Origin: Terriglobia bacterium
GTDB lineage: Bacteria > Acidobacteriota > Terriglobia > Bryobacterales > UBA6623
Assembly: GCA_009841225.1 (NCBI GenBank)
Contig: VXMF01000021.1
Coordinates: forward strand, 90,583 to 154,582
Direction: 5' to 3'
Length of the DNA: 64,000 nucleotides
Shown here piece by piece: positions 7,849-43,786 of the stretch. A program made the position numbers and the translations under genes. The notes under the pieces were generated by a model. It saw only the letters and a list, made by a program, of their open reading frames with translations, searched no databases and was not told the DNA's origin. The stretch's first letter is position 1; each line of letters opens with the position of its first letter.

Positions 7849-8742
7849 TCAGAACCAGTACTTCAAGCTCAGGCTCACGCCCCAAAACCTGCTGTCCTTG
7901 GTCGCGACCTGATACAGGATCGTTTCGCCGCGGCCCACGCTCGATTCATGGCTGCGAAGCTGATTCCAGGGCGTCGGCTCGCTGACGAACTCGCCGAAGT
8001 CAGCCCAGCGGAACTTCATGCCCAGCGTAACCGTGTCACGGAGCCGGTAGTCCACGCCGGCCAGCAGTTGATACCCCAGCATGACATCGGTCAGCCGGGC
8101 ATCGCCGATCGTCGTCGTGCCAGCGACCTTGGCGCGCAGAGCCGGGTCCGAAAAGGTCGCGATCCGCTCCGGATCGTCGTTACGCTTCCAGATGGTGGCA
8201 TAGTCAAGCGCCGCCCGTTCCACGCCAACGCCAACACCTACGTAGGGGATCCAAGAATAGGAAGACCCGAAGTCGTAGTACATGTTTGCAAAGACGTCGT
8301 GCGACCGCAGGTCATCGACGGTGCCGACCGCAAGCTCGATTTCCTGCTCGCGTTTGTCCAGCGTCACGTCGTCGAAGATGCCTAAGTCTGACTGAGTGTT
8401 ATAGGCCGTGATCCGGTAGAAGTACTCCCCCTCGAGTCTGACGGGCCCCCAGTCGTAGCCGAGCGCAATCCCCGTACTGACGCCTGCCGCGCCATCGAAT
8501 TCGTTGCTCCACGACGTACGCGCTGGAGCAGTGTCGCACTCACTGCCAGTCTCCAAGCCGTGCGGATTGATGATCAGGTCGCACTTGGTGCTCCAGTCGT
8601 TGTCCGACCCGTCCACAGCGAGCTGCGGGGCCATGGTGGCTCCCATGTCCGTCTGGAGGTACACCCCGGTCTGAGCCGCCGATTCACTGGCACACACTGT
8701 CAAGACCGTCACAACCGCCAAGGAATACAGTCGTTTCCCCAC
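7849..8742 (-). CDS. Outer-membrane beta-barrel protein (porin/opacity-like family)
   Basis: Signal peptide ending ESAAQ; alternating beta-strand pattern (GYDWGPVRLEGEYFYR, ANMYYDF, PYVGVGVG, YQLLAGVDY); C-terminal aromatic ...SLKYWF. Start placed at GTG 8742; the ORF track extends to 8904. Confidence 0.8.
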   Translation of the reverse strand: MGKRLYSLAVVTVLTVCASESAAQTGVYLQTDMGATMAPQLAVDGSDNDWSTKCDLIINPHGLETGSECDTAPARTSWSNEFDGAAGVSTGIALGYDWGPVRLEGEYFYRITAYNTQSDLGIFDDVTLDKREQEIELAVGTVDDLRSHDVFANMYYDFGSSYSWIPYVGVGVGVERAALDYATIWKRNDDPERIATFSDPALRAKVAGTTTIGDARLTDVMLGYQLLAGVDYRLRDTVTLGMKFRWADFGEFVSEPTPWNQLRSHESSVGRGETILYQVATKDSRFWGVSLSLKYWF

Positions 8743-8921
8743 CGTCGCCTTCGCGCATAGCCCATTGATCCGGCCAGCAGCGGATTCCCCTTCATCGGCT
8801 TCCCTCGGCCGGGCTCGAAGTAAGGCGCAGCTTGGGAGCGTGGGAGTGAAGCAACCGGCTCGCTGGCGGTTGCGTGTCATTCGGCAGATGCGATCGTTGC
8901 CCATCTAGGTCGCTTGCTGAT

Positions 8922-8937
8922 CAATCGTTGACGATTG
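8922..8937. promoter_or_regulatory. Inverted repeat CAATCGT-TG-ACGATTG between divergent genes; overlaps a TTGACG-N18-TACGAT promoter-like sequence
   Basis: Perfect 7-bp arms read directly from the sequence; lies in an AT-rich intergenic patch. Confidence 0.4.
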
Positions 8938-9195
8938 TAAAGAACATTATCTACGATGGGGCTTACTTGTGCCCGATCGTTCAACTTCTGTTAGCTTGGT
9001 GCTTGGTCTTAGCGGCTGCCAAGTCTCAGCCCACGCCTTGGTGCCAAGCCGAGGGAATCAGTGCTAGTGAAGGCACTACAGAGCGTGACGTATAGCGTGC
9101 CAAGTACGGGATCGTTGCCGAGATCGCCATGTCTGGCGCAACGGATGCGAGGTCTGTGTCTCAGCCGGGCGCGGGCCAGCGGCTAGGATGAGATT

Positions 9196-23573: not shown

Positions 23574-26500
23574 ATGACACCAACAAGACCACAGGCAAGG
23601 TTAGGTATCGCCCTTGCCGGCATAATCGTTGTTGCTTGGAACTTGAGCTTGTTGCCTTCCGATGCCGCAGATGGTGCACCGCAATCGCTTGAAGCATCGT
23701 TCGAGCAGACTGCGGGACCGTTCCTGAGCCAAAACTGCGTCGCCTGCCACAACGAGAACACCGCCATGTCCGGCGTCCGTCTGGATCAGCTCGACGCCGC
23801 GCTCGAAGACCGGCACCTTCGGCTTTGGGAGGTCGTCCAGAAGAGGGTGGTCGACGAGTCCATGCCTCCGGAGGGCGCACCGCAGCCCACGGCCGCCGAG
23901 CGCCAGCGCATGGATGCTTGGATCGAGCAGGCTCTGGACGTAGCGCGCTCAAGGCCCGTGCCAAAGAACGGTGTCGTGCGCCGACTCACGGTGGCGCAGT
24001 ATCGAAACACCCTGCGCGATCTGCTGCGACTGGAAGACGACATCACCGACACGCTCCCGCCAGATGCGGTCTCCAAGGACGGCTTTGTGAACAACACCGC
24101 CACCCTAGAGCTCTCCCCTCTGTTGATGGAGGCCTACCTGGAAATCGCTGACGAAGCATTGACCCGAGCCATTGTTGATCCGGACGCGAAGCCATCGATC
24201 CAGAACTTCCGGGTGGAGCTAGGCGCCGGGATCAATCCCGAGCCGCTGGAGGACGAGCTGATCCTTGGCGCGAACAGCCTGCTGTTGGCCACGCCCGATT
24301 ACGTGGTCAGCGAACCGACCCCACGCAAGCCGTTCGCGTTCGAGCACAAACGCATGCGTACGAACTACCGCTTCAACGAAGGCTACCGGGGCAACGCAAC
24401 GGTTCGCGGCTGGCGCGAATTCGATAGCATCTACCACTCCGTGTTCGCTTGCATGCGCGGCAGCCGAGGCTATCCCAAGGGCCAGCCGTACAGCACCGTT
24501 CCTGAGGGCCTGCTGCTCCGTCCGGCGATTCCCAACGATGAACTGTTCCGCCTGGACGGCACCTATGGGCCGAAGGCGAACTTCAAGATTTCGCTGCGCG
24601 AACTACCTGACCACGGGCGATTTCGCGTGACCGTAACCGCCGCGAAATACGACGATGGCCTGCTGCTGGACCAAGACGACGAGGCCCAGCCGGGGGATCG
24701 CGGCTCAGGCGCGGTCAGTGTCGATCCGGGAAGGGACAGCAGCGTGGACCTCGAGCGCGGGGGCATCTACCAAGTTGACGTATACGAGACGCCCAGAAGC
24801 GAGCCTCCCCCGCTAACAGACCTCTCCCGGCTGGAGGAAGGCCTCGCCGGAGCGTGGACGCTGGACGGCGACGAAACGATCGAGCTAGGGGCCAACGGGA
24901 GCTTCGTCGACTCCCCGTTCGGAAGAGCGCTCTCACTCGACGGAGAGGCCTATCAGCGCGGGGCGGTGGTCCCTCAGCATGACGGACTGAACGTCGGCGC
25001 GGCCGACTTCACGGTGACGGCCTGGATTCGGCCCAGGCAGAGACACCGGGCAGGCATCGTCGCGCGCGGAGCCAGGCAGTACACGCACGGCTGGTTTTTC
25101 GAAATGTCAGACAACAGAGGGTCGCTGCGGCTGGAGACAACCGGCCCGAACAACGAAACCAATGGCGTGGTCACGTCCCCGCCCGGCGTGCTCCGGGCCA
25201 AGGCTTGGCAGCATGTCGCCGCCGTCGTGCGGCGCGGCGCAGCCGAAACCAAGCTGTACGTGAATGGCTACGCCGTCGCACGGGGAATGATCGATGCCGC
25301 AAATCTGGACAACCCTGAAATCGACCTCCATCTCGGCCAAGTCCCCGAACAGGGGCCGTTCCGCGGCCAGCTCGACGAGGTGCGGTTGTATCGCAGGGCG
25401 CTATCCGAAGCCGAATTGCAAGCCTTGGTGCAACCCGGCAGGCACTTCGTCAAACCTCCGCCAGACCGGCCGCAGGACGTGACGCTCACGCTGGGAAGCC
25501 GCCAATTCTCGGGCACGTTGCTACAACCAGCATTTCTAGCCGTGCGGCTCGAGGCGGGCACGCTGCCGGTGGGCGCCCAAGGAACGGGCGTGAAGGACGT
25601 GAACCGGATTGTCCTGACGCCGCTTGACGCGGACCACGATGTCGCCAGAAGGTTCCAAGCTTTCGAGGGGCGCGTGCCGCGGCTCGGCGTCTACTTGGGC
25701 CTCCGCCGCGACTGTGGCAGCACGCTTGCTCCGGTTGGCCCGCCGCGGACCGTGCCGGAAACCGACCTGCTGCGCTACGTGTTCGAGGGCGCGGTCCGAG
25801 ACTTTCCCAGCCCTGACGTGGAGAAGGACAACATAAACTACCTTGCCGGCATCCGCGAGATCGGCGTTCGCAGCGAGTACACCGACGGGCGTGACATGCC
25901 GCGCCTGCTAGTCCGCTCGGTGGAATTCGAAGGTCCGTTCTACGAGCAATGGCCGCCCGAATCGCACCGCAAAATCTTTGTGGACTTCGACCGCAAGGCC
26001 GACTCGGCAGCCTACGCCCGCCGCATCATTTCCGCGTTCGCGAGTCGAGCCTACCGGCGCCCTGTCTCCGAGGCGGAGGTATCGGCGCTGCTGGCTGTAT
26101 TCCAGTCCTCGCTAGAAGACTCGGGCAAATTCCGCGAAAGCATCAAGGACGCGCTGCAAGTCACCCTGACGTCCCCGCAGTTCCTGTTCTTGGTCGAGCG
26201 CAGCAGCACACCAGAGCCCGAGGAACTGGAGAGTCACGAGCTCGCTTCGAAACTGTCGTACTTCCTGTGGAATTCCCCTCCCGATCGCGAATTGCTGAAG
26301 CTGGCCGGCAACGGCAAGCTGCCCTCCCTGACCGGGAGCCAAGTTGCGCGCATGGTCAATGACGAGCGCTTCTCGAAATTCGTGGAGGAGTTTGCCTCGC
26401 AGTGGTTGAGCCTCGACAAGTTCGACGCGCTGGGGCCCGACCGAGAGCGCTTCCCGAAACTCACCCGCGCCACGCGCGAGCAGCTTCGGCGCGAGCCGAT

Positions 26501-27212
26501 CGAACTGCTCGGGCACCTGTTCCGCAACAACCTCCCCGCCAAGCACCTGGTCGTCTCCGACTACATCGTCGCGAACGAGGTCGTCGCCAGCTACTACGAC
26601 CTAGGCGACCGCAGCGAGAGCGGCCTGGAGTTCGTGCCGATCATGCACGGCCGGCCCGAACTGGGAGGCTTGCTGGGTCAGGCCGCGATCATGGCCGGTC
26701 TCTCTGACGGGCGCGAGTCGAATCCGGTCAAGCGCGGAGCTTGGCTGGCCCGCAAGATCATCGCTGAGCCGCCCGACGATCCCCCGCCCAACGTGCCGGA
26801 TCTCGCCGCGAGCACCGAGGGCCTGCCCCTCCGCCAGCGGCTCGAGCAGCACCGCCGCCTGCCCGGCTGCATCCAGTGCCACCTGAAAATTGACCCTTGG
26901 GGCGTCGCGCTGGAGGAATTCGATGCCGGCGGACGGCTCAAGCTGGAACCGGTGGACGCCCGCTCGATGTTGCCGGACAGCACTGAGGTATCCGGCATTG
27001 GCGACCTGAAACGATATCTGAGCGAGGACCGCATCGACCAGGTCGCTTTCGGCGTTCTCAAGCACCTAGTGACGTATGCCAATGGGCGCGATCTTGCCTA
27101 CAATGAAGTAAGCTATCTCAAGCAAGATGGGTTGAAGCTCAAGCAAGGCGGCTACAGGATGCAGGACATGCTCCGCTACGTAGTCACGAGCGAGCTCTTC
27201 CTGGAAAAGTAG
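23574..27212 (+). CDS. DUF1592/DUF1588/DUF1587/DUF1585/DUF1595-type protein with N-terminal cytochrome c and an inserted LamG (ConA-like) domain
   Basis: CVACH; [16 protein letters not shown]; [15 protein letters not shown]; [10 protein letters not shown]; C-terminal CIQCH..IDPWG; LamG motifs [34 protein letters not shown] at about 24830-25440. Confidence 0.9.
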
Positions 27213-27240
27213 GGCGGCTGCGCAGAGAGGCTGGAGGACT

Positions 27241-28575
27241 ATGTCCCGCAAGATCGATCGACGAGCGTTCCTGTACGGAATCGGGGGCATCTCGCTGGCC
27301 CTGCCCGTCTTGGATGCCATGGGAGCCGAAGTGGCCGAGCAGATCCCGCGCCGCTTCTGCGCCCTGTATACGGCCAACGGCATGGCCCTGCCGCGAACCG
27401 AAAACGGCATCGACGAATGGAGCTGGTTCCCAACTGCGGAGCGTGATGGCGAGTATGTCTTCGGCCGCTCGACCGAGCCGCTGAGCGATTTTCGGCAGAA
27501 GCTGAGCTTCATGGGCGGCCTGTACCATCCCAGCGGTCCCAAGGCTGACCCGCATACCTGCTCGGACATGTGGCTGACCGGCGCCCCGCTGCACAACCCC
27601 AAGCCGGGAACGTACAACACCGTCGCCCTCGACCAGGTAGTGGCGCAGCACACCAAGCAGCACTGCCGCCAGCCATCGCTGGTGCTTTCCATCGACGCCG
27701 GCACGGGCTTTCTCTCGCGTACGGGGACGATTTCCTACAACCTCGAGGGCCGGCCGATCCCGGCCGAGAACAACCCTCGCCGTGTCTTCAACCGCTTGTT
27801 CCGCGGTGACCGCGAATCCATGGAATCGGAGCGGGCACGCCTCCAGCGGCGCATCAAACTCGTCGATGCGGTGGCAGACAGCGCCCGATCGCTCGACCAC
27901 CAGCTCGGACAGTCCGACCGCCAGAAGATGGATCAGTACCTGACCTCGCTGAACGAGCTCGAGTCACGCATGATCGCGTCCGAGCGATGGATCGACATCC
28001 CTCTGAAGCGGCAGGACTACTCGCACTTGAACCTCGACGCTACTTCCGAGGGAGAGCCGGCCGATTTCTACCAGACGATGTTCGATCTGATCGCGCTGGC
28101 ATTCGACGCAGACATCACTCGGTCGGTAGCGTTCATGCTCAATCGCGAGGACGGCATGGGGATCAGCGACTCGTTCCCCCTCAAACTCGGCCTATCGGCC
28201 ACCCATCACAAGCTGTCACACGCCACAGACAAGGACGGCCAGTGGCAGTTTGCGAAGTACGACCGGTTCCTCAGCCAGCAGCTCGCACACTTCTTCGGCC
28301 GGATGGAGAGCTATCGCGATCGCGACGGCTCAGTGCTGGACAACACCATCGTGCTGTACGGCAGCGGGGCGAGCACGACCCATACGTCGCGCAATTTGCC
28401 GACGCTGCTCGTGGGCGGCGCCAACATGGGCCTGAAGCACGGAACGTACTGGCGGGATGGCGAGACGCGCATGTCGAACATGTACCTCAGCCTCCTGCAC
28501 TCGATGGGGATCGGCGTGGAGTCGTTCGCCGACAGCACGTCCACGCTGAGCGATTCGATCTTCAGCCGCACCTAG
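27241..28575 (+). CDS. DUF1552 domain protein (Tat-like leader)
   Basis: [23 protein letters not shown] leader; [12 protein letters not shown]; [12 protein letters not shown]; [13 protein letters not shown]; usual partner of DUF1592. Confidence 0.9.
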
Positions 28576-28686: not shown

Positions 28687-30387
28687 CTATGCCAACTCGC
28701 CCCTGCGAGCAGCTTCCAGCAGGTGATCGCAGGCACGGGCCGTGTTCGCCATCATGGTCAGGGTCGGATTGACCGAACCCAGGCTTGGGAAGGCCGCGCC
28801 ATCGGTCACGAAGAGGTTCTTGACATCGTGCGCCTGACAGTATTCGTTGAGCACAGACGTGTGTCGGTCCCGCCCCATGCGGGCAGTGCCAACCTCGTGG
28901 ATGCCGTCCCCGGGTGTCTTGGGCCGATCGGACGTCTTGATCTCGACAGCTCCAGCGGCTTCCAGCATTGCCGCGCCTTGCTCGAGGCTGTCGCGGAAGA
29001 GCGCCCGCTCGTTGTCGCCCCACTCCATGTGGATTCTCAACACCGGGATGCCCCACGCATCGACCACGTCGGGATCTAGTTCGACAAAATTGTTGTAACT
29101 CGCCAACCCCTCGCTGAGCGCGTGCAGGCTGGCCTGCCAGTAAGCGTCTTCATGCACCGACCGCTTGAACGCCTCGCCAAATCCCGCGGCAGCCGTTGCA
29201 AAGCGCGGACCCGCTCCACCCTGGTAGCTGAAGCCCCGGATCACGCCGTTGGTGTGCGTCTTCGTCACGTTGCGGAACCGCGGGACGAAGATCCCGTTTG
29301 GCCTCCGTGGCGGGCCGTGCCACGGCTTGGCCCTGCCCAGCCGCGGCAAGCGGCCGGTGATCGTCGCACCGTACATGTGGTCCATCAGGTAGTGCCCCAG
29401 CGTGCCGCTGGAATTGGCCAGCCCTCCGGGCGCAGAGTTGAGCAAGATGCGAGTGGATTCGAGAGTGGACGCGCACAGCAGGACCACTCTGGCGCGGATC
29501 TCGCGTACGCGCCGACGGGCCCGTTCGACATACGACACGCCAGAGGCCAGGCCCGTGGCGCGGTCCATCGTCACGTGTGACACAACGGCGTCGGTAAGAA
29601 GCGTTAGCCGCCCGGTCCGCTTGGCGGCCGTCAGGGTAGTGAAGGGACTCGAGAAATACGAATACGTCACGCAACCGCGGTTGCACGGACCGCAGTAGTG
29701 GCAAGCCTCGCGCCCGTTGTGTCGGGCGGTGAGGACCGCGGAGCGTCCGATCGTGACGGGGCGCCCGAAGCGGCTCTCGACAGCCCGCTTTAAGACGCTC
29801 TCGCCACAAGTGAAGTCCATCGGGGGCAGGAGTTCTTGGTCGGGGAAGTGCGCCAGCCCCTCGTTGCGGCCGCTGACACCGATGAAGCGCTCGACCTTCG
29901 AGTAGTAGGGGGCGAGATCCTTGTACGAGAAGGGCCAGTCGGCACCGACCCCATCACGGCTGGCCGCCTTGAAGTCCAAATCACTGAGTCGGTAGCTCTG
30001 GCGGCCCCACGTCAGAGTCCGTCCTCCCAGAGCCCGCACGCGCACCCAAACGAACGGCTTGCCCGCGGGCGTGGTGAATGGATTCTCGATGTCGTTGGCG
30101 AACCACTTGTAATTGACTTCCGAGCATGCCCCTTGCTGCGCATGCATCGGCCGCAGGCGCGCAACTTCGGGCGAAGTGACGCCATTCGGACGCGTGTCGC
30201 GATACTTCATCGCGTACGGCGGGACGTGCTCGGCGAACTGGTCGGGCGTGGTCTCGGCGCCGGCCTCCAGCAGCGCGACTGACAGACCGGCCTCGGTCAA
30301 TTCCTTGGCCGCCCAGCCGCCTGTCGCGCCCGAGCCGACGATCAGCGCGTCAAAGATCTCCTGGCCGCCGTCCGCAAGCTGTGGCAT
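28687..30387 (-). CDS. GMC family oxidoreductase (FAD), gluconate/lactose 3-dehydrogenase-like large subunit
   Basis: IVGSGATGG FAD motif, ALGGRTLTWG, CHYCGPCNRGC Fe-S motif, HEVGTARMG, NPTLTMMA. Start placed at MPQLA. Confidence 0.9.
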   Translation of the reverse strand: MPQLADGGQEIFDALIVGSGATGGWAAKELTEAGLSVALLEAGAETTPDQFAEHVPPYAMKYRDTRPNGVTSPEVARLRPMHAQQGACSEVNYKWFANDIENPFTTPAGKPFVWVRVRALGGRTLTWGRQSYRLSDLDFKAASRDGVGADWPFSYKDLAPYYSKVERFIGVSGRNEGLAHFPDQELLPPMDFTCGESVLKRAVESRFGRPVTIGRSAVLTARHNGREACHYCGPCNRGCVTYSYFSSPFTTLTAAKRTGRLTLLTDAVVSHVTMDRATGLASGVSYVERARRRVREIRARVVLLCASTLESTRILLNSAPGGLANSSGTLGHYLMDHMYGATITGRLPRLGRAKPWHGPPRRPNGIFVPRFRNVTKTHTNGVIRGFSYQGGAGPRFATAAAGFGEAFKRSVHEDAYWQASLHALSEGLASYNNFVELDPDVVDAWGIPVLRIHMEWGDNERALFRDSLEQGAAMLEAAGAVEIKTSDRPKTPGDGIHEVGTARMGRDRHTSVLNEYCQAHDVKNLFVTDGAAFPSLGSVNPTLTMMANTARACDHLLEAARRGELA

Positions 30388-30712
30388 GCACGATTCCCGC
30401 GTGCAGAAAGCAGCGTCGCACTGGCGCTTCGGAACACACGAGGCCACTAGCGCAGGCGGCGAGGCTCAGCGATTCTGCAGTCGCGGAATCACAATCTTAC
30501 AGCGCTTTGCCAAGGTCCGTTCGAGTCCAAGATCTCCCGGATCGCGCTCTCGGCCAAACTCAGTGCCGGCCTGCGGGTATTGGCCAAGCCGGGCCCGAGA
30601 CGGTCCGGGCACGATCCTCGGATCGGCGGCGAGCTGGTTTGGTTCACGCAACAGCTCGTCCTTGCCGCGATTCGTTCGACAGAGGCACCAAGGTCGGTTA
30701 CTCTGGAGCCGT

Positions 30713-31195
30713 ATGGCCCGCATCGCGACGCTGTTGATCCTTGGTGCCCTGGCGCTGCCGGGCCAAGCCGACCGCAACAGGCTCGGCTTGCCCAACCCGC
30801 CCAAGACTGACATCCCCTACTTGATCCACGGCAGCGACATCCGCGAGCTTGAGCAGGTCGATGCGACGGAGGAGACCACGAAGAACCAGCTCCGCTACTG
30901 GATCGCCGGCCCGGCGGCCGCGATCCGCACGCCGCTCGCGGCGCCGGAGTTCTTGTTCGATTCGCAGCAGATCGATCCCCGCGACCTGAGCCTGTTTGGA
31001 TTCGAGGTCAAGAACGGCCGCCGCGAACTCCTCTTCCGCAAGAAGAAAAAGGTCGTGGCCGAGCCCTACTTTCTGAACCTAGAGGGCGTGGCGGGTCGCG
31101 TGATTCGGATTCGGATTAACGCTAGCCTGGCCCCGGGTGAGTACGGCATCACACCCGATGGCCAGAATATTGTCTTCACATTCTCGGTTTTCTGA
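30713..31195 (+). CDS. Secreted hypothetical protein
   Basis: Signal peptide MARIATLLILGALALPGQA at the 3' end of ORF 30113..31195; compact beta-rich domain with typical codon usage. Confidence 0.7.
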   Translation: MARIATLLILGALALPGQADRNRLGLPNPPKTDIPYLIHGSDIRELEQVDATEETTKNQLRYWIAGPAAAIRTPLAAPEFLFDSQQIDPRDLSLFGFEVKNGRRELLFRKKKKVVAEPYFLNLEGVAGRVIRIRINASLAPGEYGITPDGQNIVFTFSVF

Positions 31196-31230
31196 GTCCA
31201 TTGCCCTCTTCTAATGGGCAACACCAGCCA

Positions 31231-32091
31231 CTAGCCTTGGAGCTGGTCAATCTCGTCTTTCAAGTAGGCAATCGACTCCCTGACTATCCTCTCCGCACCG
31301 GGCGAGAAGTCGAACACTTCCATGGAAACCCAACCTGCGAAGTTGCGATCCGCGGCCACTTGCAGCACGGGCTTGAAGTCGTAGCCGCCCCCCTTGCGCG
31401 GATAGCTGCCATCCAATTCGTTGACGTGGATGTGGCGGATCTTCGACCAGTGCTTTGACACCAGCTCGTCGTGAGGCTGGTCCTCCTCGATCGCATTGTG
31501 CGAATCGAACATGGTCTGGACCATGGGGCTGCCGATCTCATCGACGATCTCCGCCGCGCGATCCAGCGAGATGATGACGTCGCACTGGTCAGTCGGCAGC
31601 GCCTCGACGCAGAGCGTCACTCCAGCTGCCTCAAGATCCGGCACGATCATGCGCACGCCCTCGATGAAATTGGCTTCCGCCTGCGCTCGTGTCAGCCCGC
31701 CTGTGGTCTTTCGCTGCACTGGCGAGCCAAACACCATGACGCCCCCTGTAGCGCCCAAGGGGCGCAGGTCGGCGCACAGCTCGACCAGCCCGCGCACGTA
31801 TTCCCAGCTCCGTTGTCGCACGGCCTCGTCCGGCGTAGTAACGTGCAGCCCCTCCGGACCGACCGTAAGCCAGTGCAAGCCGACGAAGCCGAGCCCTTCC
31901 GAGACGATAATGTCGCGAATCTCGCGCCGCCGCTCGGCGGGCAGGTTCGTCGCGTACTGCATCAGCGTGAACGGGGCAATCTCAATACCCGTCCATCCCG
32001 CGCTGCGCATCGAACGGCACGAGTCCGCAAAGTCGGACTCGCCGTAGAGTTCGTTGCAGACCGAGAGTTTGAGGTTCTTGGCAGTCTCCAC
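31231..32091 (-). CDS. Sugar phosphate isomerase/epimerase (D-psicose/tagatose 3-epimerase-like TIM barrel)
   Basis: GIEIAPF, CVEAL, MFDSHN, HIHVNE, WVSMEVF metal-ligand pattern. Confidence 0.88.
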   Translation of the reverse strand: METAKNLKLSVCNELYGESDFADSCRSMRSAGWTGIEIAPFTLMQYATNLPAERRREIRDIIVSEGLGFVGLHWLTVGPEGLHVTTPDEAVRQRSWEYVRGLVELCADLRPLGATGGVMVFGSPVQRKTTGGLTRAQAEANFIEGVRMIVPDLEAAGVTLCVEALPTDQCDVIISLDRAAEIVDEIGSPMVQTMFDSHNAIEEDQPHDELVSKHWSKIRHIHVNELDGSYPRKGGGYDFKPVLQVAADRNFAGWVSMEVFDFSPGAERIVRESIAYLKDEIDQLQG

Positions 32092-32263: not shown

Positions 32264-35200
32264 CTACTTGCGGCGCGACCACGCCTCAATGTTCCAAAGA
32301 TCCGACTCCCAGCCGTTCACCTGGAATCCCTCGATGTCGTTGCCATGAGCAGCCACCGCCCCGCGGTGGATCAGTGGAATGGTCGAGTAGCTCTGCACGA
32401 GCAAGTCGTTGAGGGCAATCGTGATCTGGTGCCGCTTTTGCTGGTCGAACGTGTTTCTCAACTCGCCATAAAGCTGATCGAATTCATCGGAGCTAAAGCG
32501 CTCCGTGTTGCTGCCGTGGAACGAGTTGGCCGCTCGCGCAATTTCGGCCGAGGTCCACGATACGAAATAGCCTTCCGCATCCGCGCTAGTGCCCCCGGTC
32601 GTGTACATCTGGACGTCTGAATAGAACCTCCCGGCTGTGTCCGGACTGTTGGTGTCGCCGCCGAAGAAAACGGACGGGTTGATCTGCTTCAGCTCGGTCT
32701 CCACGCCTATTTCCGCCCACCATTCCTTGATGTGCTCTTGAGTGGCTTGGCGGACGGAGTTCGTCGAGGTCTGGAACAGGACCTTGAGCGGGACTCCGTC
32801 GCGTTCCCTTATGCCATCGCCATCCGAGTCCACGATCCCGGCATCATCGAGAGTCACCTTCGCCAATTCGATGTTCTGCACCAGGCATTCGTCGTTATTG
32901 CTCGATGCCTGGCCCGCTACTGGCCAGATGTTACACGAAGGGCGGCCCGCAAGGTCGCCGTAGCCGATCCGCACGAGCGTGCTGCGGTCAATCGCCAGCG
33001 AAAGGGCCCGGCCGACGACCGGGTCGGTCAGGAAGGGGTGGGGGTTGGCACCATCAGCGTATTCGGACCGGAGGCTGCCCAAGCTCGCATCCGGATTGGT
33101 TTGGTTCAGCAGCAGGCGCTCGACGTTCGAGGCGAATCCCGATACGACTACCCCGCTCCCCCCGGCCGCGATCGTGGCCAGGGTGTCGGGATCGACTTGG
33201 AGGTTCGAAGCGTAGTCGGCCTCGTCCAGCTCGAGGACAGACCTAGCCGCTTGAATCGCATCGCCTCCCCCCTGCAGGACGATTTCCCTGAAATACGGCT
33301 GGCCTGCTCCGGCGCCACGATACCGCGGATTGAACTCGTAGCGCACGGAGCCCCCCTCGCGGAAGTCTGCCGCGATGTACGGACCGGTGCCAAGCGGAAC
33401 TCGATTCGCATCGGCGCAGGCTGCACCAGCATCCAAGCAGTCGGCGAACTGAGACGCTTGGAGAATCGGGCTCCCCATGGACACGAACGGCGAAAAGGGG
33501 AACGCGACCGGGCCGTCGAACCTGACGGCCACGGTTCGCTCGTCAACCGCCTCAACCGACATAACGCGATCGAAGCGCGAGGTGCGCGCACAGGGCACGC
33601 CGCTTGCAGTGCAGAACCGCCAGGTAGAGACCACGTCGTGCGCCGTCAGCGGCGTTCCGTCCGACCAAACCGCATCCTCGCGGAGAGTCCACGTAACGCT
33701 CGTGCGATCCCCCGGGATCCCGCCGTTGGCGATCGAGGGAATTCGTGCCGCTAACGCGGGAACCAATACTCCGTCCGGACCATACTCGGCCAGCGGCTCG
33801 ACCACCAGCGACGCGGCCTCGGCATCCTTCGTCCCCCTAGAAAGGTACGGGTTGAGAGTGGTTGGCGCCTGCCAGTGGGCCAGGGTCGCCGAGTCGCCTT
33901 GCCCCGCTTTCTGCATGCCGCCGCCGGGCGCGCCTGTTCCTTCGCCTGTTCCGGTTCCTCCTGGCGGTGGCATCGTGGCCATGCGATGGTCCGGATAGTA
34001 TCCGGCGCCCACCAGGATCGGCAGCCCCTGTGCCATGACCCGCCTGATGAAGGTCACCTTGCGTTCCGGCATGTTCGTGGAGGGGTTTCGGGCCGTGTAG
34101 TGCAGCAAGGCTTCGTGGAACGCGTCGCCCACGGCCACCCTGTCCTGGCCGCCGGCAGGGCTCAGCTCGGATGCGCGCATGCCGGAGCGGCTGCCGCCGC
34201 GATCGCCCGAAAACAGCGTGTTGCCGTGCATGTCGACGCCGAACACGTAGATCGAACCGCTCTTCCAGCGCGGATCGGATGCCAGCGTGGCCCCGGCGAA
34301 GTACCCCTGGGATTCGACTTCGAACGCCGCGCACCGCACGAATTCCCGCAGTCCCTGCTCGGTCGGATCAGCCTCCAGCGCTGCCGCGTTGACTTCTCCC
34401 TCCCCGTCAGGGCACGTGCCAGGCAGGTCGTGCAGGTAGATTCCGGCCCCGACCGCGGCGCGCTGCCCGTTCCAGTCCACCTCTACGACGTACGAGCTCT
34501 TCGGCTCTGACCTTCCCGCCTTGAAGTTGGTGAAGGCGTAGTGCAGCCATCCCTCGTCCGCGTCTTGCAACACACGGTGCAGCTCGTAGTAGTAGTCAGT
34601 CCCGAAGTTATCCACGAGCTCCCGCGAGGCTCCTTCCCGGAAAGGCTCTGGGGGGAACACCGCGGTGCCCGAGATGAAGCGCTCGGGGGTCGGCGCAAGG
34701 AAGTTCACAAAGACGTAGTAGAGGTCGTCGTCGTGACGCCAGCGCTCGTCGTCGTGAAAGGCCCGGTATGCCTCCTCCTCGCCGTGCAGCCCAATGTACT
34801 CGGCAGCGCACCTTACGAACGCTTGGATGTCCCGCCGCGTGCGGATCCCGCGAGCCGTGACGCGATTGTCGTCACAGGAGGGTTCCGAGGCCGCCAGTCC
34901 GGAGCCGAGCTCGTAGCCAGCGCCCAAGATGAGGGGCACGCCGTGCGAGACTACGCGCTTGAGCATTCCGAGCTTGGGCTGGATGGCCCCCGTCCTCGGA
35001 TTGCGGCCCCGATAGTAGATCAGGGCCTCGCCAAACGCATCTCCGACAGCGACCATGTCCCGCCCGCTGAACTGGTCCATGGGATCGCTCTTGCCGCCGA
35101 ATTCGTGCAGCGACTTGCCATTGATCCGCACGCCGTGGCCGCTCAGGACTTGGTTTCCCTCCAGGTCCATCGCGAACACGTAGCCGGAGCCGTCGCGCCA

Positions 35201-35878
35201 CCGCGGGCCCGTTTCGAGCTCTTCGCGGGCAAAGTAGCCCTTCTCCTCCAACAGCATTGCCGCGCAGCGCACGAATACCTCAAGCTTTGCCTCGCTGGGA
35301 GCGGCCGCCAAGTCGGCCGCGTTCACTTCTTCGGAGCTGCAGGTGCCGGGCAGGTCGGGCGCGTAGATGCCGGACCCGACCACGGCGCGCTGGCCGTCCC
35401 AGTCCACCTCGACCAAGTACGAACTCTTGGGCTGCTGCGCACCGGTGGACGGATTCCCGCTCCAGTAGTACATCCAGCCGGAATCGGCAAGCCCCAGCAT
35501 GCGAAACGACTCGGAATAGTAGTCGGTCCCAAACGCGTCGATATAGGTGCCCCAGACGTCGCCTTCCCTGGACGGATCGCGCGGATAGACATAGACGAGC
35601 GCTTCGTCTGCGGACGGCGCCACCTGCTCGACAAACAGGTAGATTGGTCCGTGCCTCCAGCGCTCGTCCTCATGGAACGCCCGCCGGGCCTCGGCGGTGC
35701 CGTGCTCTCTCAAGTACTCCGCCGCGCACCGAACGAACGCCTGGACATCAGTCGTCGTGCGGACTGCGCTCGCGCTGATTTGATGCTCCGCGCAACTGGC
35801 CGGCGCGCTTGCGCGTACGGGCAATGCCGCAATCGGCACAAGAACGGCTAGCAGGAGAAACCGGATTGGTCGCGTCAC
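32264..35878 (-). CDS. Secreted fusion: four tandem single-Cache-like domains + family-5 (peptide/nickel) ABC solute-binding protein
   Basis: Signal peptide; four repeats with FVRCAA...RW...Y.F...G..Y...NP.T....K......GxGxY; Gly/Pro linker; then SBP5 motifs PTTLNP, VTWTLREDAVWSDGTPLTAHDV, PLGTGPY, RALSLAIDR, DGDGIRERDG. Confidence 0.85.
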   Translation of the reverse strand: MTRPIRFLLLAVLVPIAALPVRASAPASCAEHQISASAVRTTTDVQAFVRCAAEYLREHGTAEARRAFHEDERWRHGPIYLFVEQVAPSADEALVYVYPRDPSREGDVWGTYIDAFGTDYYSESFRMLGLADSGWMYYWSGNPSTGAQQPKSSYLVEVDWDGQRAVVGSGIYAPDLPGTCSSEEVNAADLAAAPSEAKLEVFVRCAAMLLEEKGYFAREELETGPRWRDGSGYVFAMDLEGNQVLSGHGVRINGKSLHEFGGKSDPMDQFSGRDMVAVGDAFGEALIYYRGRNPRTGAIQPKLGMLKRVVSHGVPLILGAGYELGSGLAASEPSCDDNRVTARGIRTRRDIQAFVRCAAEYIGLHGEEEAYRAFHDDERWRHDDDLYYVFVNFLAPTPERFISGTAVFPPEPFREGASRELVDNFGTDYYYELHRVLQDADEGWLHYAFTNFKAGRSEPKSSYVVEVDWNGQRAAVGAGIYLHDLPGTCPDGEGEVNAAALEADPTEQGLREFVRCAAFEVESQGYFAGATLASDPRWKSGSIYVFGVDMHGNTLFSGDRGGSRSGMRASELSPAGGQDRVAVGDAFHEALLHYTARNPSTNMPERKVTFIRRVMAQGLPILVGAGYYPDHRMATMPPPGGTGTGEGTGAPGGGMQKAGQGDSATLAHWQAPTTLNPYLSRGTKDAEAASLVVEPLAEYGPDGVLVPALAARIPSIANGGIPGDRTSVTWTLREDAVWSDGTPLTAHDVVSTWRFCTASGVPCARTSRFDRVMSVEAVDERTVAVRFDGPVAFPFSPFVSMGSPILQASQFADCLDAGAACADANRVPLGTGPYIAADFREGGSVRYEFNPRYRGAGAGQPYFREIVLQGGGDAIQAARSVLELDEADYASNLQVDPDTLATIAAGGSGVVVSGFASNVERLLLNQTNPDASLGSLRSEYADGANPHPFLTDPVVGRALSLAIDRSTLVRIGYGDLAGRPSCNIWPVAGQASSNNDECLVQNIELAKVTLDDAGIVDSDGDGIRERDGVPLKVLFQTSTNSVRQATQEHIKEWWAEIGVETELKQINPSVFFGGDTNSPDTAGRFYSDVQMYTTGGTSADAEGYFVSWTSAEIARAANSFHGSNTERFSSDEFDQLYGELRNTFDQQKRHQITIALNDLLVQSYSTIPLIHRGAVAAHGNDIEGFQVNGWESDLWNIEAWSRRK

Positions 35879-36066: not shown

Positions 36067-36951
36067 ATGCAATCCGATTTCACACGCAGGAAGTTCGCGC
36101 GCCTTGCTGTCGGCGCGGGAGCCGGCCTTGCCGGAGCTCCTGTGTTCACCGCCCACGACAGAATCACCGCCAAGTTCTCCGGGGTGACCGTCGGCGCGCA
36201 GAGCTACAGCTTCCGGGATCGACCCCTGGACGAAGCGATCGCAGCGATGAAGCAAATCCGCATCGGCTCTTGCGAATTGTGGAGCGGCCACACGGAGCCG
36301 CTGCGCGAACTCCGCAGGGATCGCGAGAAGCTGCGGGCATTCCGCCTTGAGACACCGCTGAGGCACTACGAGGAAATCGGCGAGAGCTTCCACGCGGCCG
36401 GGATCGAACTGAACGCGTTCAACTACAGCTTCCGCGACGACTTCACCGACGAAGAGATCGCCCGGGGCTTCGAGATGGCCAAGGCCATGGGCGCCAAGGC
36501 GCTCACCGCATCCGGCACGGTCAGCGTCGCCGGGCGCGTCAACGGCCACGCCCAGCGCTACCGCATGACGGTGGGCATGCACAACCATTCCCGCATCAGG
36601 GAAAACGAGTACGCCACGCCGGACGACTTCGCGGCCGCGTCCAAGGGCAACAGCCACATCGGGGTCAACCTGGACATCGGCCACTTCATCGCCGCCGGCT
36701 TCGACCCGCTCGACTACATCAAGCAGAACCACGCGCAGATCATTGCCCTGCACATCAAGGATCGCAAGCGGGACCAAGGCGAGAACGTGCCTTTCGGAGA
36801 GGGCGACACCCCGATCCGCGAGGTGCTCGCCCTGCTGCGCGACAACAGCTACGACATCCCCGCCAACATCGAGTACGAGTACAAGGGCGGCGACACCGTA
36901 GAGGAAGTCGAGAAGTGCTTCAATTACTGCAAGCGGGCCTTGGCGTCATAA
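36067..36951 (+). CDS. Sugar phosphate isomerase/epimerase, Tat-exported
   Basis: TRRKF twin-arginine leader; GAQSYSFRD, GMHNH, NLDIGHF, LHIKD, ANIEYE. Confidence 0.88.
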   Translation: MQSDFTRRKFARLAVGAGAGLAGAPVFTAHDRITAKFSGVTVGAQSYSFRDRPLDEAIAAMKQIRIGSCELWSGHTEPLRELRRDREKLRAFRLETPLRHYEEIGESFHAAGIELNAFNYSFRDDFTDEEIARGFEMAKAMGAKALTASGTVSVAGRVNGHAQRYRMTVGMHNHSRIRENEYATPDDFAAASKGNSHIGVNLDIGHFIAAGFDPLDYIKQNHAQIIALHIKDRKRDQGENVPFGEGDTPIREVLALLRDNSYDIPANIEYEYKGGDTVEEVEKCFNYCKRALAS

Positions 36952-38440: not shown

Positions 38441-41400
38441 GTGATCGTGCGAGTTCCGGCCTCACTGCTGCACATGTTGATCCTCGGCGTGGCCCTAAGC
38501 CCGCTGATGGGGGCAAGCGTGCAGTTCAACCGCGACATTCGCCCGATCCTGTCGGAGAATTGCTTTGCGTGCCATGGCCCGGACGAGGCCAAGCGCATGA
38601 CATCGTTCCGCTTGGACAAGGAACTGGGAGCCGAAACCACACTCAGCGGAGGGCGCAAGGCCGTCGTACCCGGCGATCCGGGCGGCAGCGAGTTGTACCT
38701 GCGCGTGTCCGCTTCAGACCCGACCCGGCGCATGCCCCCGTCGGCCATGGGGCATGACCCGCTCACCGACCGCGAAATCGGCCTGTTGCGGCAGTGGATC
38801 GAGGAGGGCGCCCAGTGGCAGGGACACTGGGCGTTCCTGCCGCCGCTGCGGCCCGCGGTGCCTGCCGTCGAGCACCCCGGCTGGCCTGTCAATCCGGTGG
38901 ACAGCTTCGTCCTGCACCGCATGCGCTCCGAGGGATTGGAGCCATCGGCACCGGCATCAAGGGAAGCCCTGATCCGCAGAGCGAGCCTGGACCTGACGGG
39001 CATGCCCCCGGAACTCGGAGACATCGACACCTTCATGGCAGACGACTCTCCGGACGCCTACGAGACCGTTGTGGACCGGCTCCTGGCGTCGCCCCGCTAT
39101 GCGGAACGGATGGCGATCCGCTGGCTCGACGCCGCGCGCTACGCCGACACGAACGGCTACCAGACCGACGCCGAACGCGACATGTGGCGGTGGCGCGACT
39201 GGGTTATCCAAGCCTTCGATTCCAACAAGCCGTTCGACGAATTCACGATCGAGCAGATCGCGGGCGACATGCTTCCGAACGCCCGCTTGGACCAAATCAT
39301 CGCGACTGGCTTCAATCGCAATCACCGAGGCAATGGCGAGGGAGGCATCGTCGACGCTGAGTACGCGGTGGAGTACGTGGTGGACCGCGTTGACACTACT
39401 TCGACGGTCTGGCTGGGACTGACCGTCGGGTGCGCTCGTTGCCACGACCACAAGTACGACCCGTTCACCCAGACGGAGTACTACGAGCTGTTCGCTTACT
39501 TCAACAACGTGCCGGAGAAGGGCAAAGCGTTCAAGTACGGCAATTCCCCGCCCTTCGTCAAGGCCCCGACTAGCGAGCAGCAGGCCAGCTTGGCCCGGAT
39601 GGACGCAGATCTGGCCGCCGTGCGCGCCGACCGAGACCGTCTCGAGGAGCGTCACGCGAGTGAGCGACCGGAATGGGAGCAAGACCTTGCGAGCGAGCCC
39701 ACCGAGTGGATCGACGGGCTCGACCTCGCTCTCGCTTTCCCCGAAGGCCACGATCTACCCAAGCCAACCGAGCGGGCGTTCGAATCCGGCAGCTTCGCCG
39801 AATTGGGCGACAAGGCCAATTTCGGCTTCCGCGACCGCTTTAGCGTCACTGCGTGGATCCGCCCGGAAGACCCGAACGGGACGATCGTTTCAAGGACCAA
39901 GCACGTCCTGCCGGAAGATGACACGCAGTCCAATCCCGGCTGGGGCTTCTACCTCAAGGACGGAAAGCTGCAGGTCAACCTGGTCAACCGCTGGCTCGAC
40001 GACTGCCTGCGGCTGGAGACGAAGCAGCCAGTCACTATCGGCAAGTGGCAACAAGTGGGCTTCACCTATGACGGCACGCGCTTGGCCTCGGGAGTCCGCA
40101 TCTTCATCGACGGAGAACCGGTCGATCTCAAGGTCATCCGCGATGAAATGAACCAGGAGATCCGCTCGAAGGAGCCGTTGCGCGTAGGTCGTGGCCTAGG
40201 GCTCGACTACCGGGGCAAGCTGCGCCGCCTGTTGGTCTACGGCCGCGCGTTGACCCGCGAGGAGATGCGCATCGCATCTGAAGAGCGCAGCCTCGACGAG
40301 ATCGCGGCGATCCCGGCGACCGACCGCGCTCCGAACCAGTCGCTAAAGCTCGAGCACGCCTATCGCGAAGCGGTGGGCCCGGCCGATCTGACGGCATTGT
40401 CTGCGCGGATCCGAGACTTGGAGCGCGAGCGCGCGCAGTACTTCGACGCCTTGCCGACGGTGATGGTGATGCAAGAGGCGTCACCCCGGCGCAAGACCTT
40501 CCGCCTGGATCGAGGGGCATACGACGCACCCGCCGAGCAAGTGCAGCCGGGTCTGCCCGCAGCCCTGTCAACCTCGGACGCGAGCGACCGGCTGGGCTTC
40601 GCCCGCTGGCTGGTGTCCCGCGACAATCCCCTGACAGCGCGCGTAACCGTCAACCGCGTCTGGCAGATGCTGTGGGGCGCTGGCATTGTCAAGACGGTCG
40701 AAGACTTCGGATCGCAGGGCGAATGGCCCACCCACCCCGAATTGCTGGACTGGCTGGCAGTGGACTTCATGGAATCGGGCTGGGACATGAAAGCCTTGGT
40801 CAAGACGATTGTGATGAGCGCGGCCTACCGCCAGTCGTCCCGGCTGCGCCCGGGCGAGGTCGGATCGGACCCGGACAACCGGCTGCTGGCCCGCGGTCCG
40901 CGCCTACGCCTGCCCGCGGAGTCTGTCCGTGACCTTAGCCTCGCCGTCTCCGGCCTGTTGGTCGAAGGGATAGGCGGCCCCTCGGTGCGTCCTTATCAGC
41001 CCGCCGGGCTATGGACCGAGTTGGCCGGCGGTGCCGACTACGACGTGGGGAGCGGCGCCGATCTGTACCGCAGGAGCCTGTACACATTCTGGAAGCGAGC
41101 CGTGCCTCCGCCATCGATGATGCTGTTTGATTCCGCCGGGCGCGAAGCTTGCACGGTGCGGGCCGTACGCACGAATACTCCCTTGCAAGCCCTGAACCGC
41201 ATGAACGATGCCGCCTACATGGAGGCATCGAAAGCACTTGCCGGCAGGGCGTTGCGCGAAGCGGGCGCCGGGCGTGACCAGCGCTTGGGCTACATGTTCC
41301 GCCTAGCGACCTCGCGGCACCCCAGCGAGCAGGAGACGCAGGTCTTGTCGTCCGGATTCAACCACCACTTGGATCGCTTCCGCAGCGATCCCAAGGCGGC

Positions 41401-41521
41401 GACCGCGCTGTTGGGAGAGCAACCCAGGCACACCGGCGAAGTGTCGCAACCCGAAGCGGCGGCGTACACAATGATGGCCAGCTTGGTGCTGAACCTAGAC
41501 GAGACGATCACGCGAGAGTAG
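38441..41521 (+). CDS. PSD1/planctomycete cytochrome c protein (DUF1549 + DUF1553) with an inserted LamG domain
   Basis: VQFNRDIRPILSENCFACHG; NPVDSF; LIRRASLDLTG; WLDAARYADTNG; CARCHDHKYDP; PTHPELLDWLA; TNTPLQAL; LamG-like FSVTAWIRP, WQQVGFTYDG, RIFIDG at about 39780-40270. Confidence 0.92.
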   Translation: MIVRVPASLLHMLILGVALSPLMGASVQFNRDIRPILSENCFACHGPDEAKRMTSFRLDKELGAETTLSGGRKAVVPGDPGGSELYLRVSASDPTRRMPPSAMGHDPLTDREIGLLRQWIEEGAQWQGHWAFLPPLRPAVPAVEHPGWPVNPVDSFVLHRMRSEGLEPSAPASREALIRRASLDLTGMPPELGDIDTFMADDSPDAYETVVDRLLASPRYAERMAIRWLDAARYADTNGYQTDAERDMWRWRDWVIQAFDSNKPFDEFTIEQIAGDMLPNARLDQIIATGFNRNHRGNGEGGIVDAEYAVEYVVDRVDTTSTVWLGLTVGCARCHDHKYDPFTQTEYYELFAYFNNVPEKGKAFKYGNSPPFVKAPTSEQQASLARMDADLAAVRADRDRLEERHASERPEWEQDLASEPTEWIDGLDLALAFPEGHDLPKPTERAFESGSFAELGDKANFGFRDRFSVTAWIRPEDPNGTIVSRTKHVLPEDDTQSNPGWGFYLKDGKLQVNLVNRWLDDCLRLETKQPVTIGKWQQVGFTYDGTRLASGVRIFIDGEPVDLKVIRDEMNQEIRSKEPLRVGRGLGLDYRGKLRRLLVYGRALTREEMRIASEERSLDEIAAIPATDRAPNQSLKLEHAYREAVGPADLTALSARIRDLERERAQYFDALPTVMVMQEASPRRKTFRLDRGAYDAPAEQVQPGLPAALSTSDASDRLGFARWLVSRDNPLTARVTVNRVWQMLWGAGIVKTVEDFGSQGEWPTHPELLDWLAVDFMESGWDMKALVKTIVMSAAYRQSSRLRPGEVGSDPDNRLLARGPRLRLPAESVRDLSLAVSGLLVEGIGGPSVRPYQPAGLWTELAGGADYDVGSGADLYRRSLYTFWKRAVPPPSMMLFDSAGREACTVRAVRTNTPLQALNRMNDAAYMEASKALAGRALREAGAGRDQRLGYMFRLATSRHPSEQETQVLSSGFNHHLDRFRSDPKAATALLGEQPRHTGEVSQPEAAAYTMMASLVLNLDETITRE

Positions 41522-41750
41522 GGCTCCCCACGAACAGTTTCCGCAGCCCCTGTGGTCGTGGCCACGCATCCGCGTTCGAGGCAGGGCGCTGACGCCGGTC
41601 CGCCCTGATCGGCGACGCACACTCGCGCTCGCCTCGCTAGGTTCGATCGGACGGTTGTCCAGGCTGCAGTGAGGTTGGCAATCCTCGCGACCTCGTTGTA
41701 CCGTGGGCACCGTCCGGACCGAAGGCCACATCGGGTCGAGCACCCGAAGA

Positions 41751-42143
41751 ATGACCATGCAGACGAAGCACCTTCCTGAATCCTACGACGCGCTGGCCCC
41801 AGACGGCTCGGAGATTCGAGTCCTTGCGGCCACGGCCAGCGGCAGCATGGCGCACTGCTCTCTGCCTCCGGGGCGAACCTCGGTGGCGGTGGCGCACAGA
41901 ACGGTGGAAGAGGTCTGGTACTTCCTTGCCGGCACGGGCGAGGTCTGGCGCAAGCTCGGCGAGCGGGAGGTGGTCATCGAAGTTTCGCTTGGCACTTCTC
42001 TCGCAATCCCCCTCGGCACTCACTTCCAGTTCAGAAACACCGGAAATACACCGCTGGAGTTTCTCCTAACCACGATTCCTCCTTGGCCGGGCGACGACGA
42101 AGCCTACCGTGTCCCTGGCCTGTGGCCAACAGGAGGCGATTGA
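41751..42143 (+). CDS. Cupin domain protein (mannose-6-phosphate isomerase-like)
   Basis: H..VEEVWYFLAG.GEVWR, IP.GTHFQFRNTG..PL cupin motifs. Confidence 0.85.
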   Translation: MTMQTKHLPESYDALAPDGSEIRVLAATASGSMAHCSLPPGRTSVAVAHRTVEEVWYFLAGTGEVWRKLGEREVVIEVSLGTSLAIPLGTHFQFRNTGNTPLEFLLTTIPPWPGDDEAYRVPGLWPTGGD

Positions 42144-42355
42144 TCCCTTAGCGGACCAATTGGCAAGACACTCCGGCACCGCGTCACGTGATCCGCTTGT
42201 CGAGGTTGACTCTAGCGTGCACGGATCAGAGCGGAGAGCCTGACGCCGCGGCAAGCGGAAACCAGCGCCTAGGGCAGTCCCCGGTGTCCCGCCACAGCTG
42301 AACGCTCTACCTCGACCGCCGGCATCGAGCGTATAATGGACGCGGATTCGAGACC

Positions 42356-43786
<1,431 letters not shown>

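Follow-up and report, generated by a model that had tools for sequence, protein, structure and literature searches.

Within a 64,000-nucleotide stretch of contig VXMF01000021.1 from a Terriglobia bacterium of the order Bryobacterales (hereafter the window), one gene on the minus strand (32264..35878) encodes a protein of 1204 aa in which four tandem Cache repeats are joined to a family-5 solute-binding protein (SBP) domain. We find that the protein is genuine, secreted and conserved in Bryobacterales, and that it belongs to an uncharacterised family instead of standing alone. Taking the two halves together, we read the protein as a solute receptor for a distant membrane partner, built on a lineage-specific, non-signalling Cache module for binding or anchoring, and we give this reading a probability of roughly 45%.

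A Cache array tethered to a solute-binding domain

The coding sequence, stop codon counted in, is one unbroken open reading frame (ORF) with a GTG start. Its first ~24 residues (35807..35878, minus strand, as for all features of the gene) read as a Sec-type signal peptide, with the n-region MTRPIR, a hydrophobic core and a VRA/ASA cleavage motif, and from this leader the protein is predicted to be exported, either into the periplasm or out of the cell. Homologues carry equivalent leaders with variable spacing to the first cysteine. We rejected a lipoprotein: no lipobox precedes Cys29, and the equivalent of Cys29 opens every internal repeat too. The leader is followed by the repeats R1 (residues 29-178, 35345..35794), R2 (179-333, 34880..35344), R3 (334-487, 34418..34879) and R4 (488 to ~631, 33986..34417), each with a cysteine pair (Cys29/Cys51, Cys180/Cys205, Cys335/Cys357 and Cys489/Cys516, respectively); six more cysteines lie in the SBP part. 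A first-pass annotation, made by a model from the sequence, had placed Cys29, Cys180, Cys335 and Cys489 at nucleotides 35794, 35341, 34876 and 34414, which are the exact first bases of those codons. A tether rich in Gly, Pro and Thr (HRMATMPPPGGTGTGEGTGAPGGGMQK, about residues 632-658, 33905..33985) leads to the cluster-C SBP domain (about residues 659-1204, 32267..33904). As the annotation had also stated, we found no transmembrane helix beyond the leader and no output domain (by Pfam) in the 1204-aa protein, and no adjacent permease or ATPase gene in the 64-kb window. Base composition is even across the region.

BLASTP of the whole protein against itself returned the identity match alone, and we instead compared segments of ~155 residues pair by pair. 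R1 and R3 share 52% identity (E=2e-54) and R2 and R4 share 44% (E=2e-40), compared to 27-29% for cross-type pairs (E=1e-12 to 4e-5). Because the scores of R1/R3 and R2/R4 exceed those across types, the A-B-A-B order proposed at first pass, with R1 and R3 as A-type and R2 and R4 as B-type repeats, is real and far beyond chance. The motifs FVRCAA, RW, Y.F and G.G are present in all four repeats as had been reported; the 'NP' motif does not hold throughout, being NF in R3.

At the sequence level, Pfam sCache_2 (PF17200) matches residues 224-321 in R2 (E=5e-15, 56.1 bits in the full protein). When the repeats are scanned singly, R2 scores 32.8 bits, R3 14.3 and R4 14.0 against a cut-off of 25, and R1 gives no match. 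A profile of the A-type repeats finds the sCache_2 structures 4K08 (E=8.8e-7) and 5G4Y (PscD, E=2.5e-3) among PDB sequences, and a B-type profile gave spurious myelin-P0 matches only. An AlphaFold2 model of the mature N-terminal 619 residues was built on a 66-sequence alignment. The model has a mean predicted local distance difference (pLDDT) score of 89 and a predicted template-modelling score (pTM) of 0.90, with a helix and a five-strand sheet in each repeat, and it predicts the four-Cache array to be one rigid body. Using Foldseek against the PDB, single repeats match 4EXO/2QHK (target TM-score, TMt, 0.71; root-mean-square deviation, rmsd, 2.7 Å), 5G4Y (TMt 0.65) and 4K08 (TMt 0.60), with rmsd values of 2.7-5 Å over the sCache_2 matches, in line with the Cache/PAS-like fold suspected earlier. 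No PDB entry matches the arrangement of the domains well: every alignment of at least 270 columns has an rmsd above 10 Å, and the multi-domain matches (PpsR, alpha2delta, Cachd1, DosP) superpose poorly. We also considered the A-B pair as a single dCache domain and rejected it. The dCache_2 (PF08269) matches span one module (88-174 or 217-295 of 298) and overlap the sCache_2 matches, each repeat has its own helices in the AlphaFold2 model, and dCache structures reach a TMt of up to 0.29 with rmsd above 10 Å against the repeats.

In the sCache_2 domain of PscD, carboxylate binding involves Tyr90, His103 and Lys156, plus Tyr143 (PMC5062169). Sequence alignment shows the equivalents of Tyr90, Tyr143 and Lys156 retained in the A-type repeats, with His103 replaced by Phe or Tyr and the Trp92/Trp145 sandwich by Phe; aligned to 4EXO, the B-type repeats retain Tyr/Tyr/Lys and carry Ser in place of His. 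Since most of the carboxylate-binding residues are retained, the Cache array is probably still ligand-binding, and the group bound is probably a small carboxylate-bearing one. In the 66-sequence alignment each of the eight repeat cysteines is conserved to at least 90%, which fits one disulfide per repeat; each would join the N-terminal segment to helix 1. In R1 the invariant residues are W74, Y80, E123, R126, W135, Y138, K151 and W160. Those of the A-type are identical in the R1 and R3 positions and across paralogues (66 homologues). This result favours one common ligand or partner over diversified sensing.

The C-terminal part matches Pfam SBP_bac_5 over residues 706-1110 (E=7.9e-49, 167 bits versus a cut-off of 32.4), and its model aligns over ~550 columns with AapF, AgaA, CtaP, YliB, NikZ, DppA and OppA (TMt 0.78-0.87). 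It is thus predicted to be a full cluster-C fold, and the earlier call of a complete family-5 SBP stands. Six cysteines of this domain (756/763, 814/821 and 982/998), which probably form three disulfides, are invariant in 83 homologues, and in the same 83-sequence alignment dozens of residues are invariant with operon-encoded transport SBPs. The first-pass description of the domain as peptide-binding is not secured: identity to the nearest solved SBPs is only 17-21%, and their ligands vary (peptides, metal chelates, opines or a signalling molecule). PDB sequence matches are weak (best 1.5e-17, to Thermotoga oligosaccharide/peptide-type SBPs), and the NCBIfam equivalogs for peptide SBPs stay far under their cut-offs (TIGR04028 79 versus 468 bits, Opp4A 74 versus 650, DppA 26 versus 1005).

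To describe the junction we used a second AlphaFold2 model covering R3-R4, the linker and the SBP domain, with an 83-sequence alignment. A full-length alignment was set aside, with repeats out of register and rows of four-Cache proteins down to 34-39% identity. The second model has a pLDDT of 80 and a pTM of 0.62, with a linker pLDDT of ~31. Because of these low values we see the Cache array and the SBP domain as two beads joined by a loose tether, and the model predicts no fixed geometry between them. The linker, of ~27 residues, varies in length among relatives, and its ratio of non-synonymous to synonymous substitution rates (dN/dS, computed for the window gene versus seven orthologues) is 0.35-0.79. 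In one orthologue, L013, whose flanks are most like those of the window, the linker holds an extra domain of ~130 aa with two cysteines (L013:9835-10270). This domain has a weak NigD_C match (E=0.0017) and is reached via a frameshift at a C-run.

These properties bear on the earlier proposal that the protein couples sensing to peptide delivery, the Cache domains sensing several small molecules and thereby gating or tuning ligand capture or delivery by the fused SBP. Such coupling would make sense of ligand-binding folds that are covalently joined and of the Tyr/Tyr/Lys pocket residues that appear to be retained, and the two repeat types could mean two ligands. Nevertheless we consider it distinctly unlikely. 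The tether is disordered, under relaxed selection, variable in length and accepts the insertion of a whole domain; pTM falls to 0.62 from 0.90 for the array alone; and the key residues are invariant among paralogues, not diversified. Moreover, the same Cache pair is found on unrelated periplasmic proteins (superoxide dismutase, cytochrome P460, FGE-like, LRR and fn3 proteins), which argues against a regulation specific to the SBP.

Conservation and turnover of the fusion

A scan of the GTDB species representatives gave 326 matching stretches. The best 80 of these 326 are all found in Bryobacterales or Terriglobia metagenome-assembled genomes (MAGs), in 29 genomes with up to 6 copies each within this subset. 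Among them the intact fusion of four Cache repeats and SBP domain (1199-1254 aa) is present as 11 copies in 10 species-level Bryobacterales MAGs (L008, L009, L010, L012, L015, L018, L019, L021, L023, L025 and L062), from SPAdes, MEGAHIT and long-read assemblies. P0363 is a twelfth copy from a further genome, and P0121, 99% identical, covers the R4-linker-SBP junction in another assembly. Accordingly, the architecture is not the orphan that the first-pass annotation took it for: it is conserved in many Bryobacterales MAGs and already present in public data, auto-annotated as 'ABC transporter substrate-binding protein', a label that hides over half of the protein.

The wider family is tiny: among 1.84 billion protein clusters it has 400 representatives at E<=1e-3, of which 72 reach E<=1e-30. 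The named members come nearly all from Acidobacteriota MAGs, mostly Bryobacterales. Searching with the Cache half, we found at least 328 proteins at 50-65% identity across the full length of that half. They fall mainly into a class of ~630 aa, with four Cache domains, and a class of ~980 aa. We had considered the extra ~350 aa of the latter as a C-terminal extension and rejected this, as the sequences instead show two further N-terminal Cache-like domains. Judged from sequence, hundreds of proteins are arrays of four or six Cache domains with no cargo. The SBP half finds ~60 clusters of 834-934 aa with one A-B pair plus SBP_bac_5, 66-70% identical in the SBP part, which NCBI also labels 'ABC transporter substrate-binding protein' and which come from Bryobacterales and other Acidobacteriota MAGs.

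The dN/dS of the whole gene is 0.19-0.23. Values for the repeats span 0.09-0.36 overall (R1 0.10-0.25, R2 0.16-0.29, R4 0.27-0.36) and those for the SBP domain 0.15-0.17, so that every domain of the protein is under purifying selection. Conservation across genomes together with purifying selection shows that the fusion is not an assembly artefact. A chimeric junction, or a decaying pseudogene without function, is a very improbable account of the window gene: the copy is a single uninterrupted ORF of 1204 codons, base composition is uniform, dN/dS is 0.09-0.36 in all domains, and the same junction recurs in at least 10 independent genomes, put together by three kinds of assembler. What speaks for decay is the state of several relatives (L001, L011, L016, L017, L020, P0225 and P0200). 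Frameshifts are found in L001 (P0003), L011 and L016, and in L013 at the C-run; L017 has an in-frame stop, L020 two insertions, P0225 is an SBP remnant beside an insertion sequence, and P0200 is a split gene. The loci with disrupted copies include L087/L088 and L089, and several of the disrupted copies are in apparent long-read assemblies. This suggests a rapid birth-and-death turnover of the family.

Synteny with the window is limited to the closest relatives, L008-L013, in which the neighbours are 90-98% identical and the Cache-SBP protein 86-92%; more distant orthologues lie in unrelated gene contexts. With synteny absent beyond the genus, no conserved operon partner can be derived. The Bryobacterales hosts are apparently associated with sponges: bin names such as RHO3_ and SB0664_ resemble those of sponge metagenome bins, in keeping with sponge MAG studies (PMC8163846).

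Possible roles of the two halves

The relatives of the SBP domain point to an origin in transport. Stand-alone orthologues of this SBP5 subfamily, P0235 (54% identity) and P0191 (64%), are found in opp/dpp-type operons with the order SBP-permease-permease-ATPase-ATPase, and an M20 peptidase gene adjoins the operon in the P0235 locus. The only pointer to a peptide-like substrate is the presence of M20 peptidase genes in such operons. The same subfamily carries N-terminal SBP_bac_3, OpuAC or NMT1-like domains in P0208, P0211 and P0215, on contigs that are probably from Acidimicrobiia, and P0219 combines a different N-terminal binding domain with it inside an opp-type operon between M20 peptidases. 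The subfamily thus appears to be a fusion-prone lineage. We also observed it in opp-type operons at L005, L006 and L090, with flanking M20 peptidase genes in L005 and L090.

The Cache pair, too, has many fusion partners. Besides SBP_bac_5, the Cys-stapled A-B pair is joined to FGE-sulfatase in one or three copies (P0373 and P0380), to MCP-like_PDC_1 and, in P0382, P0369, P0366, P0449, P0374, P0379 and P0376, to Sod_Cu, Cytochrome_P460, LRR, fn3, a pair of ~110-aa repeats and domains of unknown nature, including an N-terminal one of 245 aa. To the eye, P0379 ends in a part that resembles SBP3, with no significant PDB match (E ~0.2). None of the Pfam lists of the 120 homologues listed contains an output domain, and no transmembrane segment or signalling output was seen in any family member examined. 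One protein, P0106, bears the JGI name 'signal transduction histidine kinase'; we rejected this name, as its Pfam list is Cache-only and its sequence consists of Cache-like repeats throughout. The giant protein P0482 (2099 aa, on a 2.55-Mb contig) has 13 tandem sCache_2 matches and no other significant domain. The A-B Cache pair is a promiscuous, output-less module specific to the Bryobacterales lineage. Given its many unrelated periplasmic partners, and key residues that do not vary between paralogues, we regard the pair as a candidate carrier, anchoring or capture unit.

On our preferred reading, the protein would be a modular exported binding protein, with two independent bodies on a flexible tether. 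The SBP domain would be a functional cluster-C receptor, descended from the SBP of an opp/dpp-type importer with M20 peptidases in its operon, and would probably bind a peptide-like or amide compound. We infer that, like other orphan SBPs, it works with a membrane protein whose gene lies elsewhere in the genome and on which it docks; an Opp/Dpp-type permease is the most likely candidate. The Cache array would not be a sensor input; as a rigid, disulfide-stapled tandem module without output, it may be the common carrier, anchor or capture device for whatever cargo is attached, holding or concentrating it at one shared ligand, be it a metabolite or a component of the envelope or host matrix.

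Several observations weigh against this reading. No ORF of the window has ABC ATPase motifs or is an OppB, OppC, OppD or OppF homologue, and neither an Opp-type permease nor any OppB/OppC homologue is found within 8 kb on either side of 79 Cache-array loci plus seven further Bryobacterales-type loci (L001-L004 and L087-L089), 1.53 Mb of Bryobacterales DNA in all. The best 120 relatives (at least 70% identity) of the permease in the P0191 operon are of Acidimicrobiia type, and none appears to be from Bryobacterales; a transporter partner in Bryobacterales genomes is therefore putative. The His103 position of the sCache_2 carboxylate triad is replaced in both repeat types, and the anchoring target of the Cache module is hypothetical. 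Finally, with so many disrupted copies, the function could be dispensable.

The membrane partner might instead be a sensor. The protein would then be an adaptor in trans that docks on a kinase or chemoreceptor, its Cache pair mimicking or competing with the receptor's own Cache dimer. Partnerships in trans between SBP5 and Cache proteins are documented (PMC8050422), the genes are orphans, and an A-B pair could imitate a Cache dimer. This is quite improbable, however, since no conserved sensor gene stands beside any copy at the loci examined, the Cache pair also carries enzymes, and at least 4-6 copies per genome would be unusual for a dedicated adaptor.

With no transporter genes near any copy, we also considered a binder or adhesin that has no link to transport. 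Cache array and SBP, acting purely as binding modules, would sequester host metabolites, or attach the cell or the secreted protein to a polymer of the sponge matrix or envelope, for example a carboxylated or sulfated glycan, with multivalency supplied by 4-13 Cache domains. We hold this reading to be unlikely. It would accommodate the cargo-free arrays of 4, 6 and 13 Cache domains, the fusions to LRR and fn3, domains typical of host-interaction proteins, and the sulfatase neighbours (2.9-fold enriched, p=0.019) and FGE-sulfatase fusions. Sponge-associated Acidobacteriota are moreover reported to degrade polysaccharides and to have many eukaryote-like repeat (ELR) proteins (PMC8163846). The SBP domain, however, is constrained as a working receptor would be (dN/dS 0.15-0.17), and dozens of its residues are invariant with operon-encoded transport SBPs. 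In addition, sCache_2 pockets are sized for small molecules (PMC5062169), and the sulfatases, plentiful in these genomes, are only modestly enriched beside the Cache-array genes.

A broader proposal concerns the pair itself. The Cys-stapled A-B pair may be a new extracytoplasmic, non-signalling class of Cache, a portable binding or anchoring domain whose function is less like that of a sensor than like that of a carbohydrate-binding module (CBM), LysM or SLH domain. In Bryobacterales, which apparently live as symbionts of sponges, it would be fitted to SBPs, redox enzymes, FGE-like domains and LRR/fn3 proteins, be multiplied to 4-13 domains, and so hold these proteins on one shared carboxylate-bearing ligand, possibly a sulfated glycan or envelope component. 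We put this forward as a speculation that is somewhat unlikely.

Sulfatase genes directly adjoin Cache-array genes in 8 of 149 adjacent slots compared to 14 of 751 other slots (2.9-fold, Fisher p=0.019), and seven of the eight are co-oriented with the Cache-array gene. The loci are L027, L028, L034, L039, L044, L049, L054 and L062, in each of which the Cache-array gene lies at ~8001-10400. We regard this neighbourhood enrichment as a weak lead.

The genes around the fusion in the window are of other kinds: two AP_endonuc_2 TIM-barrel genes, a GMC oxidoreductase, ispD/ispF, and genes of planctomycete-type PSCyt/PSD, DUF1501 and DUF1552 families. The xylose-isomerase-like AP_endonuc_2 genes flank the target (28687-32091 and 36067-36951), the upstream one with a twin-arginine-like leader, and the GMC oxidoreductase is downstream; this arrangement is kept only in the closest relatives, L008-L013. 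Planctomycete-type gene pairs occur in this acidobacterial DNA at 23574-28575 and 38441-43786. They consist of a PSCyt/PSD multidomain protein with DUF1552 and of a PSCyt1/PSCyt2/PSD1 protein with DUF1501, and both large PSCyt/PSD proteins carry a Laminin_G_3 domain. An ORF at 59575-61068 combines a lipoprotein-like leader with a sulfatase-like motif at the N terminus (NFVLVFIDDMGYGDIG). On the plus strand, a 360-aa ORF at 30113-31195 has no Pfam match; its C-terminal half opens with a signal-peptide-like stretch (MARIATLLILGALALPGQA), and the true start may lie further downstream, in which case the product would be a small secreted protein.

Comparison with known systems

Among the extracellular sensor inputs of bacterial signalling proteins, Cache domains are seen as the dominant kind, and in a survey of the superfamily every Cache family except SMP_2 carries signalling outputs (Upadhyay et al. 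2016, PMC4822843). The small family described here breaks the rule that Cache means signalling input, being soluble, output-less, multi-copy and fused to transport receptors and periplasmic enzymes. In the literature we found no paper describing the architecture of four Cache domains plus SBP5 or output-less Cache arrays. A non-signalling module, if true, would be only the second documented bacterial neofunctionalisation of Cache outside signal transduction; a ligand-dependent anchor or capture device would be a new functional class in the superfamily, and would point to a specific host- or envelope-derived ligand important for life inside sponges.

The closest structural parallels of the repeats are the sCache_2 domains of chemoreceptors (the PscD sensor domain 5G4Y/5G4Z, Adeh_3718 4K08 and the Vibrio parahaemolyticus 4EXO/2QHK), with which they share the fold. 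Unlike those, the repeats have no flanking transmembrane helices and no methyl-accepting chemotaxis protein (MCP), kinase or GGDEF output; four of them stand in tandem in one soluble chain, with a conserved cysteine pair in each; and His103 and the Trp sandwich are replaced, the latter by Phe. Cache domains outside classical signal-transduction proteins are also known from alpha2delta/Cachd1 and SMP_2. The alpha2delta chains are among our best multi-domain Foldseek matches (E ~1e-8), yet with a TM-score of ~0.1, and alpha2delta/Cachd1 combine VWA with dCache_1 modules, whereas neither VWA nor dCache_1 has a Pfam match here. SMP_2 has no sequence relationship to the Cache repeats.

A family-5 SBP and Cache-type domains meet in the same compartment in two characterised systems, AibA with TlpB (sCache_2) in Helicobacter pylori and the chitin-oligosaccharide protein CBP with ChiS (dCache-like) in Vibrio (PMC8050422). 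In both, the SBP is a protein of its own and the Cache domain is part of a membrane receptor that has an output, while here a single soluble chain holds the two, with neither an output nor a predicted fixed interface.

As for the SBP half, the full SBP_bac_5 fold and signal peptide are shared with cluster-C SBPs such as DppA, OppA, NikA/NikZ, AapF and AgaA, which differ in lacking a 630-residue N-terminal Cache array and in being genetically linked to a permease and ATPase. Orphan SBPs can borrow a distant permease, as E. coli MppA does with Opp, and the gene described here is likewise remote from any permease. Several substrate-binding domains (SBDs) can also share one chain, as in the tandem SBDs of GlnPQ. 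Both GlnPQ-type proteins and the SBP_bac_3, OpuAC or NMT1-like fusions resemble our protein in carrying an extra extracytoplasmic binding module, which in P0208, P0211, P0215 and P0219 is likewise N-terminal to the same SBP5 subfamily. What sets our protein apart is its Cache array and the orphan position of its gene, whereas in those fusions the added module is itself an SBP fold and the genes remain in transporter operons.

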